From Prochlorococcus sp. AG-347-E23 (lineage in GTDB: Bacteria; Cyanobacteriota; Cyanobacteriia; PCC-6307; Cyanobiaceae), in NCBI GenBank assembly GCA_003281685.1, contig QCBH01000003.1:48234-112233 (forward strand): a stretch of DNA of 64,000 nucleotides. The letters run 5' to 3'. Below are positions 56,997-64,000 of the stretch, one piece after another. The notes below the pieces were generated by a model, which was not told the DNA's origin, made no database searches, and saw only the letters and a program-made list of their open reading frames with translations. The first letter of the stretch is position 1, and every line of letters begins with the position of its first letter. The translations under genes were made by a program, and so were the position numbers.

Positions 56997-58001
56997 AAAA
57001 AAAGACCTGCTAAGTGCAGGTCTTTTAATGTGTGTAAGATTTCTAAATTAAATTTAGATTTAGAAGCTGAATGATGTTTTAACCATGATTCCAGTTTCAT
57101 CTTCATCAGCTGCATCTTCTCCTTCTACAGTGTAAATAAGAGGAGTGATTGTCATTCCGTCATTTAATGCGTATGAATAATATACTTCATACATCAATCT
57201 TTCAGGCATAACACCAGCGGCTTCAGTCATTGATGAAAAAGTACCTACAGCAGCGCCTAGTTCTCCTGGTCCAACTTCACCGTTTAATCCAATGAAGTAA
57301 GCTTCTGTTTCGTCAGATGCTGCTACCTCATTATCAAGATCACCGATTTCATAACCAGCACTGATGTTTAAACCGCTATCAAATGAATAATAACCATTTA
57401 ATGCTGTGTATGTATCGTTATCAATACCATCTTCACTATTTGCGTAAGTAATAGAAACACCGTAGCTATCAGCTGTGTATGCAAGGTTTACCGCAAAAGC
57501 ATCGTCAGTTTCATCGGTAGCAATACCAGTTTCAGTGAATTGAGCACCAACTGCTGTTGTAAATCCATTATCGAAATCATATGCAGCACCAATAGATATT
57601 CCACCACCTGTGATTCCAGCATTTACGTTAGCGCAATCATCAAGTGTGTTAGATGGTCCGCCATAAGCACAAGCTGTGGTAAATAGCATACTTCCATCTG
57701 TGTTGTCTCCAATGAAAGCAGTCGCTCCACCTAGTGGGAATGTGTATGAAATACCATCGACAGTTAGTGCTTCAGAAGCGCTATTAGTGTCGAATTGACC
57801 GAGTGAACCACCTGCGTTACCAGCATCAAGAGAGATATCAAGTGAATCTTCTCCAGTGAAACTAGTGTTCAAGTCAATCTGGAAACCGTAAGTAGCCTGA
57901 AGTTCTTCTTCTCCATCAGTTACTGTAGTTGTGATACCAGCACCATCAACAGCACCGATCGCGAAATCAACTGAGAATGAAGCAGTTGTTGTTTCTGAGA
58001 A
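56997..58001. repeat. 1005-bp direct repeat, copy 1 (porin barrel, 3' UTR, terminator)
   Basis: Matches 58313-59317 at offset 1316; no mismatch found by line-by-line reading. Confidence 0.92.
56998..57026. terminator. Intrinsic terminator of porin 1 (potentially bidirectional)
   Basis: A-run, AAAGACCTGC-TAAGT-GCAGGTCTTT stem, T-run; duplicated at about 58314-58342. Confidence 0.8.
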
Positions 58002-58220
58002 ACCTCCATCATAGCTATCTGTATCAGCTAATCCTTCTCCACCTGCTAGAAGGAGACTTTTATTAGGTTGATCACTATCAAATGAGTTAGCGAATTCGAT
58101 ACTTTCTACATCAGAGTAGTTTGAAATTTCATTGAGGTTAACCTCAGTAGCGTTTGCAGCAATAGGTGAAATCAATCCTAAAGCAGCTGGAGCTACCAAC
58201 AAACGTTGGAAAAGCTTCAT
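57060..58220 (-). CDS. som: Outer-membrane porin (Som type, no SLH), copy 1
   Basis: MKLFQRLLVAPAALG signal peptide, FSETTT barrel start, terminal KTSFSF. Confidence 0.9.
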   Translation of the reverse strand: MKLFQRLLVAPAALGLISPIAANATEVNLNEISNYSDVESIEFANSFDSDQPNKSLLLAGGEGLADTDSYDGGFSETTTASFSVDFAIGAVDGAGITTTVTDGEEELQATYGFQIDLNTSFTGEDSLDISLDAGNAGGSLGQFDTNSASEALTVDGISYTFPLGGATAFIGDNTDGSMLFTTACAYGGPSNTLDDCANVNAGITGGGISIGAAYDFDNGFTTAVGAQFTETGIATDETDDAFAVNLAYTADSYGVSITYANSEDGIDNDTYTALNGYYSFDSGLNISAGYEIGDLDNEVAASDETEAYFIGLNGEVGPGELGAAVGTFSSMTEAAGVMPERLMYEVYYSYALNDGMTITPLIYTVEGEDAADEDETGIMVKTSFSF

Positions 58221-58312: not shown

Positions 58313-59317
58313 AAAAAAAGACCTGCTAAGTGCAGGTCTTTTAATGTGTGTAAGATTTCTAAATTAAATTTAGATTTAGAAGCTGAATGATGTTTTAACC
58401 ATGATTCCAGTTTCATCTTCATCAGCTGCATCTTCTCCTTCTACAGTGTAAATAAGAGGAGTGATTGTCATTCCGTCATTTAATGCGTATGAATAATATA
58501 CTTCATACATCAATCTTTCAGGCATAACACCAGCGGCTTCAGTCATTGATGAAAAAGTACCTACAGCAGCGCCTAGTTCTCCTGGTCCAACTTCACCGTT
58601 TAATCCAATGAAGTAAGCTTCTGTTTCGTCAGATGCTGCTACCTCATTATCAAGATCACCGATTTCATAACCAGCACTGATGTTTAAACCGCTATCAAAT
58701 GAATAATAACCATTTAATGCTGTGTATGTATCGTTATCAATACCATCTTCACTATTTGCGTAAGTAATAGAAACACCGTAGCTATCAGCTGTGTATGCAA
58801 GGTTTACCGCAAAAGCATCGTCAGTTTCATCGGTAGCAATACCAGTTTCAGTGAATTGAGCACCAACTGCTGTTGTAAATCCATTATCGAAATCATATGC
58901 AGCACCAATAGATATTCCACCACCTGTGATTCCAGCATTTACGTTAGCGCAATCATCAAGTGTGTTAGATGGTCCGCCATAAGCACAAGCTGTGGTAAAT
59001 AGCATACTTCCATCTGTGTTGTCTCCAATGAAAGCAGTCGCTCCACCTAGTGGGAATGTGTATGAAATACCATCGACAGTTAGTGCTTCAGAAGCGCTAT
59101 TAGTGTCGAATTGACCGAGTGAACCACCTGCGTTACCAGCATCAAGAGAGATATCAAGTGAATCTTCTCCAGTGAAACTAGTGTTCAAGTCAATCTGGAA
59201 ACCGTAAGTAGCCTGAAGTTCTTCTTCTCCATCAGTTACTGTAGTTGTGATACCAGCACCATCAACAGCACCGATCGCGAAATCAACTGAGAATGAAGCA
59301 GTTGTTGTTTCTGAGAA
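58313..59317. repeat. 1005-bp direct repeat, copy 2
   Basis: Matches 56997-58001. Confidence 0.92.
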
Positions 59318-59494
59318 GCTACCAGCTTCAACGTTATTTAATCTTGCTTCTAAGCCATCTACACGGCTGTTAGTAATAGCAAGTTGTTCTGCAGGGGTGA
59401 AGTCACTAATAGTTACTTCGTTTGCTGTAGCAGACATAGGTGCTAAAAGACCTAATGTTGCAGGAGCTACAAGCAAGCTTTTGAAAAGCTTCAT
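58376..59494 (-). CDS. som: Outer-membrane porin (Som type), copy 2
   Basis: Start placed at MKLFKSLLVAP (59494); coiled-coil-like N-terminus (RVDGLEARLNNVE), barrel identical to copy 1. Confidence 0.9.
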   Translation of the reverse strand: MKLFKSLLVAPATLGLLAPMSATANEVTISDFTPAEQLAITNSRVDGLEARLNNVEAGSFSETTTASFSVDFAIGAVDGAGITTTVTDGEEELQATYGFQIDLNTSFTGEDSLDISLDAGNAGGSLGQFDTNSASEALTVDGISYTFPLGGATAFIGDNTDGSMLFTTACAYGGPSNTLDDCANVNAGITGGGISIGAAYDFDNGFTTAVGAQFTETGIATDETDDAFAVNLAYTADSYGVSITYANSEDGIDNDTYTALNGYYSFDSGLNISAGYEIGDLDNEVAASDETEAYFIGLNGEVGPGELGAAVGTFSSMTEAAGVMPERLMYEVYYSYALNDGMTITPLIYTVEGEDAADEDETGIMVKTSFSF

Positions 59495-59499
59495 AAATT

Positions 59500-59508
59500 T
59501 CCTCACAC
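59500..59508 (-). promoter_or_regulatory. Yfr1 sRNA seed target site in the porin 2 5' UTR
   Basis: mRNA GTGTGAGGA overlapping the ribosome-binding site. Confidence 0.7.
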
Positions 59509-59534
59509 GAAATTTAAAGTACACCTCAAGATAA

Positions 59535-60311: not shown

Positions 60312-60848
60312 TTATAAATTACATCTGGGTTTATTTTTCCAAACAGGAGAATCACAATTTATATTCCCTAAATTCTTTTTCCTTTCGATTTTATTTGCTT
60401 CAACATTATTGGTAATTTGAGTCACCCAAGCAGGTTCATAAGACTCTCGTGTATAACCCTCAGAACCACTTAAATAACAAAAATAGTTTGCTAATTGATA
60501 TCCGATGTGATCGGGTGTTATTGATTGCCAATTAGCAGCAGCATAATAGCCACCAAGAGCACTATTCATTTTTACTTGAATCTTAGAAGTGAATTTATCG
60601 CAATTTAATCTGACTTTGCCTACATATGACATGATGTACTGTGTTTGCCCCTCAAATTCATCCTTAGTCGCATTTCTTTCCATATAGAATCTTAATTTTC
60701 CACTTTTAATCTCTACATCATTTGTATCTATTGTCCAATTCTTGTTAATTCTTACCCATTTGTTGGGAGATTGACTCTCAGGAATCCCTGCATTAACAAC
60801 ATTAGGTAAAGCAAGAGTAGCTAATAATGGGAGTAGTAAGCGTTTCAT
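60312..60848 (-). CDS. Hypothetical secreted protein with C-terminal CDSPV module
   Basis: Signal peptide MKRLLLPLLATLALPNVVNA; ends INCDSPVWKNKPRCNL. Confidence 0.8.
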   Translation of the reverse strand: MKRLLLPLLATLALPNVVNAGIPESQSPNKWVRINKNWTIDTNDVEIKSGKLRFYMERNATKDEFEGQTQYIMSYVGKVRLNCDKFTSKIQVKMNSALGGYYAAANWQSITPDHIGYQLANYFCYLSGSEGYTRESYEPAWVTQITNNVEANKIERKKNLGNINCDSPVWKNKPRCNL

Positions 60849-61018: not shown

Positions 61019-61092
61019 CGGGGCGTGGCGCAGCTTGGTAGCGCGGGTGCTTTGGGAGCACTAGGTCGCAGGTTCGAATCCTGTCGCCCCGA
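61019..61092 (+). tRNA. tRNA-Pro (TGG), encoded CCA to 61095
   Basis: CGGGGCGTGGCGCAGCTTGGTAGCGC-GGGTGC-TTTGGGA-GCACT...GGTTCGAATCC...GCCCCGA-CCA. Confidence 0.97.
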
Positions 61093-61101
61093 CCATTTAA
61101 T

Positions 61102-61129
61102 AGCAAGGGATCCAAGCCCTTGCTTTTTT
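61102..61129 (+). terminator. Intrinsic terminator after tRNA-Pro
   Basis: AGCAAGGG-ATCCAAG-CCCTTGCT followed by a T-run. Confidence 0.8.
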
Positions 61130-61156
61130 ATTTCTAGAGTGTCTCAAATATACAAA

Positions 61157-61203
61157 TAGAGCTAAGAATAGAGCTAGATTCTAATTAAAACTGATTAGCT
61201 CTA
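61157..61203. repeat. Arm-type repeat array at the tRNA-proximal inner end
   Basis: TAGAGCTA at 61157 and 61169 (12-bp period), inverted copy TAGCTCTA at 61196-61203. Confidence 0.75.
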
Positions 61204-61362
61204 AATTTGGTGCTCTATGTTTTATATATTTTATGAAAAACAAATCAAAGCCTAAATAATCAGAATGGGTCGTGTTTAATGCCATGATGGATCAAAACAA
61301 AAGTATCCTCAATCGAGGAACTTACGTTAAAAATGGCAAGTTAAATTTTTTATTATATTTTT

Positions 61363-62742
61363 TTACCAAAATTTAAATATGTTTTCTTTTTCTACGATAT
61401 TCCCACAACTATTTGTATTTTCAGCTTTTCCTGGATTTTCGCTATTAAGAGATCTTAAAATATCCACGATTGAGATCGCAAAATTTAGGTTCTGAGCTCT
61501 ACCTTCGTCTCCAGGCAAACTCCAAGTATTAACTCCAACTACCTCACCATTACTATTAACTAAAGGTCCACCACTATTACCAGGGCTTATAGCTGCATCT
61601 GTTTGTATGAGTGTAACGTAATATGGGACAACATCTTCTAAATCACTCGATGGTTGTCTTACAGCACTTACAATCCCTCTTGTAACTGTTCCTGCCAGGC
61701 CAAGAGGAGATCCAAGAGCAATTACATTTTGACCAGGTCTTGGATATTTACTAAAACAAAGTGGGAGAGCTTTTGAGTTTTTAATATTATTTGCTTGTAT
61801 TAATGCGAAATCAAGCTTTGAGTCCACATAAATAACTTCACCTTGATCTTTCAGACCATCATCTCCAGAGATAGTGAATTCTTTATCGCCCCCGGCTACT
61901 ACGTGCATATTAGTAACAATCAGTCCTTCATTATTAATAAAAAAACCACTCCCTAATCCTGAATCTCCCTCTAATTTGACTACTGAAGGGAGAGTTATAG
62001 ATGCTATTTCCTCTACATCAAGTTTTTTTGAACTAATCGAGGCTCGAGCTATTTCATATTTAGGTTTGTTCCATTCTTTTGTATCTTTCTGGAATAATAG
62101 TTTTAAATTTTTTATTGTCTCTTCTCCAATAGGAATAAATTTATCTGCTAAACCACTATTTGGAATAGCCTTAATTTGCAAATTAATTGATTCATTCTCA
62201 CCCATATTCTTAATTCTTTTTGCAAATCCAGAGGGAAACTGAAATTCACCTCTACTTCCTCTTAATCTAAACCTCTTTTCTCCAACAAATATCTCTATAA
62301 AACCTGGAAAATCATAATATTTAGCACTCTCATAAGTACATGTCCAAAAACCACAACCACCCCATGTCAATATTCTTCCTTCTAATTTATTGGTATTCCA
62401 TTTCGTGACATAACTTTTAACTGCTCCAGTACTAAAATCAGAAACATAATCTCTATCAAAAATTGTTAATTCATAAGAATTTCTAAGAGATGATTTGTAT
62501 TTTATAATTTTGGACCAAGCAATCTTAGGATTTTTCTTTTTCCAATCAACATCTTTTTCATATTCAATCACTTCTAAACCTGTATCCTCATCAATAACTA
62601 CATTTCGCAGATATTTCTCAGTACATCTTTTTTTATTTTTGTGAACAGGAGAATCACAATTAATCTTTACTGCTAATACTTCTGGAATATAAAAAGAACC
62701 TAACCCCAAAAGAATTACTATAGATATAAATTTTCTCATCAA
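61363..62742 (-). CDS. Secreted trypsin-like (S1C/HtrA-like, no PDZ) serine protease with N-terminal extension
   Basis: Signal peptide; triad motifs VTNMHVV, DFALI, GNSGGPL; TVTRGIVSA and IQTDAAI. Confidence 0.92.
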   Translation of the reverse strand: MMRKFISIVILLGLGSFYIPEVLAVKINCDSPVHKNKKRCTEKYLRNVVIDEDTGLEVIEYEKDVDWKKKNPKIAWSKIIKYKSSLRNSYELTIFDRDYVSDFSTGAVKSYVTKWNTNKLEGRILTWGGCGFWTCTYESAKYYDFPGFIEIFVGEKRFRLRGSRGEFQFPSGFAKRIKNMGENESINLQIKAIPNSGLADKFIPIGEETIKNLKLLFQKDTKEWNKPKYEIARASISSKKLDVEEIASITLPSVVKLEGDSGLGSGFFINNEGLIVTNMHVVAGGDKEFTISGDDGLKDQGEVIYVDSKLDFALIQANNIKNSKALPLCFSKYPRPGQNVIALGSPLGLAGTVTRGIVSAVRQPSSDLEDVVPYYVTLIQTDAAISPGNSGGPLVNSNGEVVGVNTWSLPGDEGRAQNLNFAISIVDILRSLNSENPGKAENTNSCGNIVEKENIFKFW

Positions 62743-62838
62743 TTGGATTTTTCTTCCTATTGATATTATCTGTATTTAATTTAATTGTCTCTCTTATGTT
62801 AAGAGGAGATTAATCAGACAAAAAGTCAATTTAGAAAA

Positions 62839-62884
62839 TAGAGCTAGGAGTAGAGCTAGGAGATAATTAACTCTAATTAAAACT
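62839..62884. repeat. Arm-type repeat array at the distal inner end
   Basis: TAGAGCTAGGAG twice (62839-62862), near-inverted TAACTCTA (62868-62875), TCTAATTAAAACT shared with 61180-61192. Confidence 0.75.
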
Positions 62885-62983
62885 AATCAAAACCATCAAA
62901 ATCTTGTCTCAAATCACCTACAAAACCTAGTATCCCTTGAGAAAATAACTAGAGTCTTACATATTTCTCAAAAGTTAGCACTA

Positions 62984-63030
62984 GTGCTTTGGGAGCACTA
63001 GGTCGCAGGTTCGAATCCTGTCGCCCCGAC
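62984..63030 (+). repeat. Displaced 3' half of tRNA-Pro (att site)
   Basis: 47-bp identity to 61047-61093, starting at the anticodon stem. Confidence 0.95.
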
Positions 63031-63052
63031 TCTACTAAATCCAAGTTATACT

Positions 63053-63077
63053 AGCGAGTTTCCCGACTCGCTTTTTT
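63053..63077 (+). terminator. Intrinsic terminator after the partial tRNA-Pro
   Basis: AGCGAGT-TTCCCG-ACTCGCT followed by a T-run. Confidence 0.75.
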
Positions 63078-63104
63078 ATTTCTCATTTGTCTTAAAATCT
63101 CTGC

Positions 63105-63164
63105 GGGCGAGGAATGGGCGAGGATTTGTATAGCTTTGGAATACTTTGGAGGTTAGCTCGCCCG
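63105..63164. repeat. Second arm-type repeat array (different word) beyond the distal att
   Basis: GGGCGAGGA at 63105 and 63116 (11-bp period), inverted GCTCGCCCG at 63156-63164. Confidence 0.7.
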
Positions 63165-63170
63165 TTATAA

Positions 63171-63419
63171 CTAGAAATAAGACCTAAAGATACTAGTCTT
63201 TTTCCAACCCTCATCTAGTAATTGTTTATATTCTTTTCTTGCAGCCTCAACAGTTTCTACCCTGCTACCTTTCATAACTGGTTTACTACTTCTCTTGTAA
63301 ACACAACCATAGGAAATCATCATTGCATCAATACTAGGACTAGGTTTTGATACATCCTCAAATGGTTCAAATACTTTTATCCTATTTCTTTCATTATTTA
63401 TGAGAATAAATCTCTCCAT
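63171..63419 (-). CDS. DUF1651-like small protein
   Basis: Start placed at MERFIL (TAATG overlap with the upstream stop); C-terminal ARKEYKQLLDEGWKK pattern recalled for DUF1651. Confidence 0.6.
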   Translation of the reverse strand: MERFILINNERNRIKVFEPFEDVSKPSPSIDAMMISYGCVYKRSSKPVMKGSRVETVEAARKEYKQLLDEGWKKTSIFRSYF

Positions 63420-63688
63420 TACTTGCCTTTTGATAAAAGATAATTTAAAAAAATACCTCCCGAAACTAATAAACATCCCATAGCAACAAATCCAAGTAAA
63501 TCTATTAATGATTTATCAGTATTTATTTTTAGAAAAGTTAAAGCAAAAGCTATTGGAGGGAATAATAATATTGCTTTTGGAATGAGCGCCTGATTCCATT
63601 TCTTTATATTTGTATCTTCTTCGTTTAGCTCTTGATACATCTTTTCCAGTTTTTTTCTTTCTTCTTCCATTAAATAAGCAATAAGCAA
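63419..63688 (-). CDS. Hypothetical 2-TM membrane protein
   Basis: Charged N-terminus (probable start MEEER at 63673) then two hydrophobic helices; stop overlaps the next ATG. Confidence 0.65.
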   Translation of the reverse strand: MLIAYLMEEERKKLEKMYQELNEEDTNIKKWNQALIPKAILLFPPIAFALTFLKINTDKSLIDLLGFVAMGCLLVSGGIFLNYLLSKGK

Positions 63689-63739
63689 ATAATTGCTCCT
63701 ATACTAAAAATTAAGCTCCACCCTTGCGAGTTAATTTTC

Positions 63740-63850
63740 ATTGATAAATATCAAGTAATTTTATATAAATTCCTAACAATACTAATGTTGCTAAACCTCC
63801 TCCAATAAATATATTTGGTTGATTATTCCAAAGATTAGTTAAATATTCCA
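63740..63850 (-). CDS. Possible small single-TM protein (36 aa, TTG start)
   Basis: Manual translation (M)EYLTNLWNNQPNIFIGGGLATLVLLGIYIKLLDIYQ. Confidence 0.35.
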
Positions 63851-63893
63851 AAAAAAAAATTACTCATTATATAGAGTAATTTATTTGAAATAT

Positions 63894-63998
63894 TCAATCA
63901 GTGCTGATTTTAATATCTTCTTTTTCTTCGGTTAACTCCTTTAATTCCTCTTTAGGTTCTTCAGGCCAGGCAATATCAAATCTCGCAATCTCTTCTGT
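63894..63998 (-). CDS. C-terminal end of an acidic protein continuing beyond the window
   Basis: Open frame TEEIARFDIAWPEEPKEELKELTEEKEDIKISTD then stop. Confidence 0.5.
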   Translation of the reverse strand, partial: TEEIARFDIAWPEEPKEELKELTEEKEDIKISTD

Positions 63999-64000
63999 CG

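Follow-up and report, generated by a model that had tools for sequence, protein, structure and literature searches.

A tRNA-Pro gene in the genome of Prochlorococcus sp. AG-347-E23 (1.50 Mb, 93% complete) is followed by a 1.9-kb unit that carries one protease gene and no integrase. The unit lies in a stretch of 64,000 nucleotides (nt), here called the window (contig QCBH01000003.1, abbreviated C3, positions 48234-112233), and positions below are those of the window unless a contig is named. The near-identical relatives are Prochlorococcus genomes from single cells and from cultures. Our favored reading, which we hold with moderate confidence, is that this unit (unit 1) is an integrase-less cargo cassette with functional attachment (att) sites that can be mobilized, and that it is a non-autonomous derivative of, or a parasite on, one lineage of tRNA-Pro tycheposons. 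We label this lineage, armed with the word TAGAGCTA, type A. tRNA-Pro(tgg) is one of seven island tRNAs, at which older elements are displaced inward by new insertions (Hackl et al., bioRxiv 10.1101/2020.12.28.424599).

A single-gene unit between tRNA-Pro repeats

The tRNA-Pro(tgg) gene is intact (61019-61095, plus strand; identified by ARAGORN and by Rfam RF00005 at 64.7 bits) and would serve as the left attachment site (attL) core of the cassette. A repeat search pairs it with a partial copy farther along, 61039-61093 and 62976-63030 being 95% identical over 55 nt. The final 47 nt of both copies are identical (61047-61093 and 62984-63030, plus strand) at a spacing of 1,937 bp, as an earlier note made from the sequence alone had described. 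The proximal 47-nt core runs from the anticodon stem to the discriminator, with its anticodon loop, TTTGGGA, at 61051-61057, and its left edge is the point at which homology between genomes begins. The distal core would be at once the right attachment site (attR) core of unit 1 and the attL core of unit 2. To judge from this identity, the crossover site must lie within the proximal and distal 47-nt cores.

At the distal core lies the perfect dyad that the earlier note had reported, CTAGTGC / TTTGGGA / GCACTAG (62981-63001, plus strand), with two 7-bp arms around a 7-nt loop. The anticodon stem accounts for five of its seven pairs, and the element side contributes the outer two, as well as the A that stands in place of the G of the native G-U pair. 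The dyad in this form is specific to type A, being kept in all 14 aligned type-A distal ends, including that of the integrase-bearing metagenome contig L228, a conservation that is partly by construction because the retrieval pattern held the dyad. In units of other types only 5 or 6 of the 7 pairs form.

Williams, in NAR in 2002, is said to have described an anticodon-loop class of tRNA attachment sites used by lambdoid-type tyrosine integrases such as those of HP1 and L5. In that class, as here, the block of identity reaches from the anticodon stem as far as the tRNA 3' end, a symmetric stem surrounds a 7-nt loop, and arm repeats lie on both sides. The present sites differ in that their arm words are new and vary between units, and the position of the crossover, which we place in the anticodon loop, is here a prediction.

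Terminator hairpins were found by a terminator scan 3' of both tRNA-Pro copies, at 61102-61124 and 63053-63072. The first (plus strand) is supplied by the element, would terminate the rebuilt tRNA, forms the first part of what we call the P' arm, and occurs in all type-A proximal ends. Apart from the tRNA, no RNA family was found in unit 1 with Rfam.

Between the repeats, the sole substantial open reading frame (ORF) encodes a secreted protease of 459 amino acids (aa) (61363-62742, minus strand), with matches to Trypsin_2 (3.8e-29) and to the protease domain of Thermotoga maritima HtrA (7.7e-32). Its C-terminal domain is of the HtrA/DegP type and lacks a PDZ domain, while the N-terminal ~230 aa match no family and begin with what by eye resembles a signal peptide. 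The His, Asp, and Ser motifs, read from the sequence, are TNMHVV, LDFALI, and GNSGGP. The remaining ORFs are antisense inside the protease gene. No integrase homologue was found in 61094-62983, which holds one plausible gene only; no separate search was aimed at large serine recombinases. The content that had been proposed, one secreted serine protease gene and no recombinase, is confirmed. With the protease as its only gene, unit 1 has no replication module (primase, helicase, polymerase). The integrase, replication, and capsid or terminase genes of a phage satellite, or of a tycheposon resembling a phage-inducible chromosomal island (PICI), are all absent from it and all present at locus L087.

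We also note that the protease shares a Cys-x10-Cys peptide with another secreted protein, of 178 aa, encoded upstream. The peptide is at the C terminus of the upstream protein (NINCDSPVWKNKPRCNL) and at the N terminus of the protease (KINCDSPVHKNKKRCTE), and the DNA of the two sites (60312-60365 and 62622-62667; repeat D4) is 83% identical over 46 nt.

Matched arm repeats at the two ends of the unit

Near each of its ends unit 1 carries a direct repeat of ~45 nt, in which the tandem TAGAGCTA-N4-TAGAGCTA is followed by TCTAATTAAAACT (61157-61192 and 62839-62884). On the tRNA side these form the P' arm (61157-61203, plus strand), a candidate set of arm-type integrase sites consisting of TAGAGCTA-AGAA-TAGAGCTA (61157-61176), TCTAATTAAAACT, and an inverted TAGAGCTA (61196-61203). 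The P arm at the other end (62839-62884, plus strand) consists of TAGAGCTA-GGAG-TAGAGCTA (62839-62858) and then TCTAATTAAAACT, and aligns with the integrase-proximal arm of L228. A GTCTCAAAT box was recognized in each arm on the plus strand, at 61141-61149 in P' (shared 8-mers and alignments) and at 62906-62914 in P (shared 8-mers and the distal-end alignment), and it recurs as GTCTCA(A/T) in most other unit types. On the P-arm side, TATTTCTCAAAAGTTAGCACTA abuts the core. The 8-mer TAGAGCTA occurs five times in unit 1, always in the two end clusters, versus 37 times on the plus strand of the 1.5-Mb genome.

Proximal and distal arms share 14 8-mers in unit 1 and 17 in unit 2, which has its own, different word, whereas arms taken from different units mostly share 0 to 6, with one pair at 9. 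The word of unit 2 is GGGCGAGGA, found at 63105-63124 and again at its distal end (65774-65796). The arm match is weaker in unit 3 (GGGTAGCT), and units 4 and 5 have no matched arms. Further unit types bear matched words of their own at equivalent positions, namely, GAGCGAG, TTGCGGACAAA, TTGCCGTCAAA, GGGGAGCTA, CACGCAAA, and GTGGTCAAA.

Position is conserved as well. At six loci, which are all the loci retrieved, the motif lies 93 to 95 nt past the start of the core and 162 to 163 nt before the start of the next. When 14 distal and 15 proximal type-A ends are aligned, conservation falls into blocks with variable spacers between them. These blocks are the tandem motif, CTAATTAAAAC, GTCTCAA, and GTCTTAT.TATTTCTCAAAAGTTAGCACTAGTGC; the final 30 columns of the distal alignment are conserved by construction, as they are the retrieval pattern. 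Homology of the ends stops 5 to 25 nt to the cargo side of the tandem motif, that is, upstream of it in the P arm. With a core of 47/47 and both sets of arm repeats at the conserved spacing, the attL and attR of unit 1 look intact at the sequence level; they lack a GCACTAGGT box, to which we return below.

Integrases associated with the arm repeats

The metagenome contig L228 links these ends to an integrase. There, an ORF of 423 aa starts 54 nt from a TAGAGCTA tandem. A tRNA-Pro core follows this tandem at a distance of 162 nt and is in turn followed, 95 nt on, by a second tandem. When the P arm, core, and P' arm of the window are joined in silico, the product aligns over ~330 nt with this integrase-side junction, which is of the type expected for the attachment site of a free element (attP); the P' side is nearly identical, and the P side matches block by block. 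The attachment region of unit 1 is thus homologous to that of an integrase-bearing member, a property used to recognize tycheposons. The L228 protein falls below all Pfam thresholds and shows the C-terminal tyrosine-recombinase pattern FRHR...MGH...Y, and it is homologous end to end (E 3e-25) to the integrase of a capsid- and helicase-bearing tycheposon situated between two tRNA-Pro cores.

A second, diverged copy of the integrase-attP region stands 8.7 kb farther on in L228, with ~80% DNA identity and with TAGCGCTA in both arms. Compared directly, L228 4635-5090 and 13396-13860, which read as two diverged copies of one tycheposon, differ by a single base in each arm repeat (TAGAGCTA versus TAGCGCTA), and they do so to either side of the core. 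As read from these sequences, the two copies are a natural instance of covariation between integrase and arm.

Integrase-bearing elements in other genomes of the genus have the same layout with different words. In addition, we observed phage-like contigs in IMG/VR (L094-L099) in which an integrase gene is followed by the 3' half of tRNA-Pro and then by a sigma factor-like gene, with a tandem word particular to each contig at either side of the core (e.g., TTGTACACA and AGCGCACAT). Such contigs are a possible external source of tRNA-Pro-specific integrases. As the same layout with other words is found in integrase-bearing elements and in phage-like contigs, the tandem repeats are best read as candidate arm-type sites that co-vary with the integrase.

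The repeats might instead serve regulation or replication, for example as iterons or as operators for the integrase promoter, and travel with the ends of elements without being recombination sites. In integrase-bearing elements the P-side repeats do stand ~15 to 55 nt before the start codon of the integrase gene, the place expected of a promoter or operator. However, the repeats flank the core on both sides as direct repeats at constant distances; they are retained in cassettes that have no integrase gene for them to control and no replication genes; and those on both sides change together with the integrase (TAGAGCTA versus TAGCGCTA). We therefore consider a purely regulatory or replicative role very improbable.

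Under the cassette reading, the unit would have entered by tyrosine-recombinase-mediated site-specific recombination inside the 47-nt segment between the anticodon stem and the 3' end of tRNA-Pro, the incoming element rebuilding the 3' part of the tRNA and supplying a new terminator. Both halves of a type-A attP would have been retained: the core; a P' arm with the terminator, GTCTCAAAT, and tandem TAGAGCTA; and a P arm with tandem TAGAGCTA, GTCTCAAAT, and TATTTCTCAAAAGTTAGCACTA. The unit would be unable to move by itself, and a cognate type-A integrase, probably with a directionality factor, would recombine attL with attR. This would yield a 1,937-bp circle bearing a complete attP, or a joint move with a neighboring element, and the integrase could come from an incoming tycheposon like that on L228. 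From the state of its ends, we infer that the cassette may still be excisable.

Several observations weigh against this reading. No cognate integrase was found in this 93%-complete genome, and across 285 genomes of the genus the best homologue of the integrase of L228 has 49% identity. The type-A P arm plus core had no match among the viral contigs of IMG/VR. L228 itself contains Ns, and its two copies may reflect an assembly that walked twice round a circle. Integrase-bearing elements have, in the interval from the tandem motif to the start of the integrase gene, a GCACTAGGT box that type-A cassettes lack; should recombination depend on it, the P arm of the cassettes is truncated. Finally, RecA-dependent recombination limited to the 47-nt identity leaves the same boundaries as an integrase.

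The tandem motif alone matched at least 120 stretches in IMG/VR, and among the matches listed, none had a tRNA-Pro core nearby. The genome under study is not free of integrases. An intact but only distantly related tycheposon-type integrase of 449 aa is encoded at C1:235924-237273 (L242 7925-9274, minus strand), where its gene directly adjoins those of tRNA-Thr(ggt) and tRNA-Tyr and stands near an AAA-type helicase-like gene. This tRNA-Thr locus is a probable autonomous element elsewhere in the genome. The PF00589 profile missed both this integrase and that of L228 and yielded nothing but a core-genome recombinase with hemH on one side and a cobalamin gene on the other; because it was too insensitive, tblastn with a panel of tycheposon and phage integrases was used.

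An array of units and a family of shared ends

The protease unit is the first of at least five tRNA-Pro-bounded units. A 30-nt core of the T arm and acceptor stem occurs in five same-orientation copies on the contig, starting at 61064, 63001, 65942, 68705, and 71488 (spacings of 1,937, 2,941, 2,763, and 2,783 bp), and a sixth, degenerate core lies near 76554, the array extending past the window. Decay sets in along the array away from the tRNA, the copies being in turn 47/47, perfect, with 3 mismatches, with 1 to 2 mismatches, and degenerate. Unit 2 begins at 63031 (63031-64000 in the window, plus strand, continuing to ~65924 beyond it) with its terminator at 63053-63072 and its first arm word as given above. 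In the 22 kb downstream no integrase gene was found except for a C-terminal remnant of ~60 aa in unit 5, at the window-equivalent positions 72479-72688 (C3:120712-120921), outside the window. Chance and assembly artefact were considered as origins of the array and are ruled out, such arrays being present in two closed genomes also.

In unit 2, a small DUF1651-like gene (MEKFTLINKDRS.IKVFEPFEDVSKPS...) is found at 63171-63476 on the minus strand. The gene is repeated in several units of this island and is also present in the islands of other genomes, with further copies at L006 8645-8893 and 12425-12667.

A DNA search of the cassette against 36 relatives of the same genus matched only the conserved active-site region of protease paralogues, and for this reason the cassette had to be sought by protein and by end motifs. 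The tandem motif was scanned across the 285 genomes, and it occurs in pairs in other Prochlorococcus genomes, ~15 of which carry type-A ends by our reading of the match list. The cargo between these ends differs: three ORFs in MIT 9107, one of them an unrelated trypsin-like protein, in a unit that directly adjoins the full tRNA; a 630-aa ORF in AG-895-M21 (contig 10, L081); an RTX-repeat protein at L082; an amine oxidase-like gene with others at L227; and further sets at L221 and L223. In all, type-A ends enclose at least six cargos that are unrelated to one another, and all of these lack an integrase. Across the 31 distinct core-to-core units in the loci examined, an integrase is present in 2 and a remnant in 1, and the same tandem word stands at both ends of at least 16.

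The earlier note had proposed a search for the same ends with other cargo or with an integrase; other cargo is thus found in other genomes, and an integrase beside such ends on L228. What stands of its description of unit 1 as a minimal non-autonomous cassette is the lack of autonomy, the relation to tycheposons, and the presence of attachment sites intact in sequence, the ends resembling the attP-type junction of L228. The unit is not singular, being part of an array and of a large family.

The protease unit itself recurs in seven other assemblies or contigs, never with an integrase inside. In comparison with AG-422-G21 and AG-388-A01, the left edge of the 47-nt core is the exact point where homology begins, the sequence to its left being unrelated; compared with AG-402-N17 and AG-347-K17, the distal end is common through the core and then diverges. 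A closed genome of 1,738,790 bp has the unit in fourth place, with 96.4% identity that begins at the first base of the core. Among the seven genomes or contigs the neighbors vary both upstream and downstream, the latter in nearly all cases. The order of unit types differs as well, with A-B-D in this genome, B-A-A' in AG-402-N23, C-A-C in AG-895-M21, and A-C-E in MIT 9107. With its sharp 47-nt core boundaries and its differing neighbors and array positions, the unit reads as a discrete module.

AG-402-N23 was considered as an empty site, as its tRNA is directly joined to the junction sequence that here runs from 63031 onward. Its unit B holds different cargo, and for that reason the junction is not an isogenic empty site.

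A full-length tRNA-Pro lies in mid-array at L081 6961-7035, with two decayed partial copies upstream, and some elements (type C) seem to have a full-length but degenerate copy of the tRNA within the P arm. In AG-402-N17 (contig 24, L031 4655-4730), tRNA-Ala(ggc), another island tRNA, lies 1.4 kb past the distal core of the protease unit in the same orientation; either two islands abut in this genome or the short contig is chimeric.

The features just described bear on a different history, in which a type-A protease tycheposon shed its integrase and replication genes and left an inert remnant that can no longer be recombined site specifically, the varied unit orders resulting from serial insertion and from RecA-mediated exchange and deletion at the 47-nt repeats. 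Degenerated elements, fragmented integrases, and scattered partial tRNAs are known from the islands (Hackl et al., 10.1101/2020.12.28.424599), and this same array holds the integrase remnant of unit 5 and units 4 and 5 with arms that are now mismatched. The missing GCACTAGGT box and the lack of a close cognate integrase among the 285 genomes fit such decay, and the deeper position of the unit in the closed genome fits pushing in by newer insertions. Against it, both arms are intact in eight independent protease cassettes that differ by 4 to 14% in DNA; the same ends surround at least six unrelated integrase-less cargos; conservation is block-wise with variable spacers; and the downstream neighbors of the protease unit vary nearly everywhere, so that many independent deletions would be needed. 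We regard an inert remnant as possible but unlikely.

In two genomes an integrase-bearing element stands in tandem with a cassette. In AG-422-G21, an integrase gene with one in-frame stop is immediately to the tRNA side of the protease unit, and in AG-355-O17 a type-A unit is followed by a complete capsid-bearing tycheposon. Tandems of this kind are also compatible with capture of host flank, in which a tycheposon excised imprecisely in a donor and, by later precise excision, left the flanking DNA behind in a transduction-like manner. This model has been put forward by Hackl et al. (10.1101/2020.12.28.424599), who find that recognizable elements make up a few percent of Prochlorococcus island DNA and invoke imprecise excision for the rest. 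Random host DNA would not, however, bear type-specific arm repeats at both ends and at fixed distances, nor would it give a complete attP once its ends are joined, and for unit 1 we think this origin highly doubtful.

Relation to known systems

Like the tycheposons (10.1101/2020.12.28.424599), unit 1 is inserted at tRNA-Pro(tgg) with a partial tRNA copy at its far end, a feature by which members are recognized. It likewise has niche-type cargo, tandem stacking with the newest unit nearest the tRNA, and ends homologous to the attP of an integrase-bearing member. Unlike autonomous tycheposons, it has no integrase, excisionase, or replication module, and it measures 1.9 kb with one gene, whereas tycheposons are 10 to 20 kb (10.1101/2020.12.28.424599).

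Cis-mobilizable elements (CIMEs) of integrative and conjugative element (ICE) systems offer a second comparison (PMC6323972). CIMEs have lost the genes for integration and transfer, keep attL and attR, and are mobilized by a related autonomous element in cis or in trans. Unit 1 likewise has no integration or transfer genes, and its attL and attR look intact in sequence except that the GCACTAGGT box of integrase-bearing P arms is absent; its mobilization is predicted, the differing positions and neighbors in other genomes being indirect evidence. AG-422-G21 and AG-355-O17 provide examples of tandem accretion with an autonomous element. The parent elements here are non-conjugative, the proposed vehicles are vesicles or capsids, and the units form arrays with many arm types.

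The arrays also resemble those of integron cassettes, being made of short recombinase-less units of one to a few genes, each with its own recombination site and in an order that varies by strain. They differ in having no attC hairpin, no attI, and no adjoining intI. The unit boundaries are tRNA-derived, double-stranded cores with lambda-like arms, no integrase adjoins the array, and each unit type would need its own integrase.

Neighboring genes

Upstream of the tRNA, two adjoining porin-like genes (57060-58220 and 58376-59524, minus strand) have unrelated N termini and identical C-terminal ~330 aa, from FSETTTASFSVDF onward. The small ORFs downstream of the two are near-identical too, which suggests a recent duplication or gene conversion.

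Implications for island turnover

Tycheposons, stacked insertions, and degenerate fragments are already published. The text of the tycheposon preprint (10.1101/2020.12.28.424599), in its preprint version, uses none of the terms "arm-type," "direct repeat," and "binding site," and units that lack an integrase but have complete matched ends are not described in it; a literature search returned no paper that joins tycheposons with "non-autonomous." A family of integrase-less units with complete, type-specific split attPs offers an alternative account of island content.

Extending this account beyond unit 1, we tentatively suggest, as a bolder and rather less likely proposal, that integrase-less "mini-tycheposons" make up the tRNA-Pro islands of high-light Prochlorococcus as integron-like arrays, each unit keeping a complete split attP with arm repeats matched to a single integrase lineage. 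Rare and transient tycheposons that bear an integrase, or temperate phages with tRNA-Pro as their target, would excise, shuffle, and export these units in trans, and most of the gene flow of the islands would be carried by non-autonomous cassettes and not by autonomous elements or by flanks excised imprecisely. If true, integrase-arm pairs such as those with TAGAGCTA and TAGCGCTA would be a natural series of specificity variants for the study of site-specific recombinases. If most island units are such cassettes, they would provide a concrete mechanism for the origin and turnover of the flexible genome in the most abundant phototroph of the ocean.

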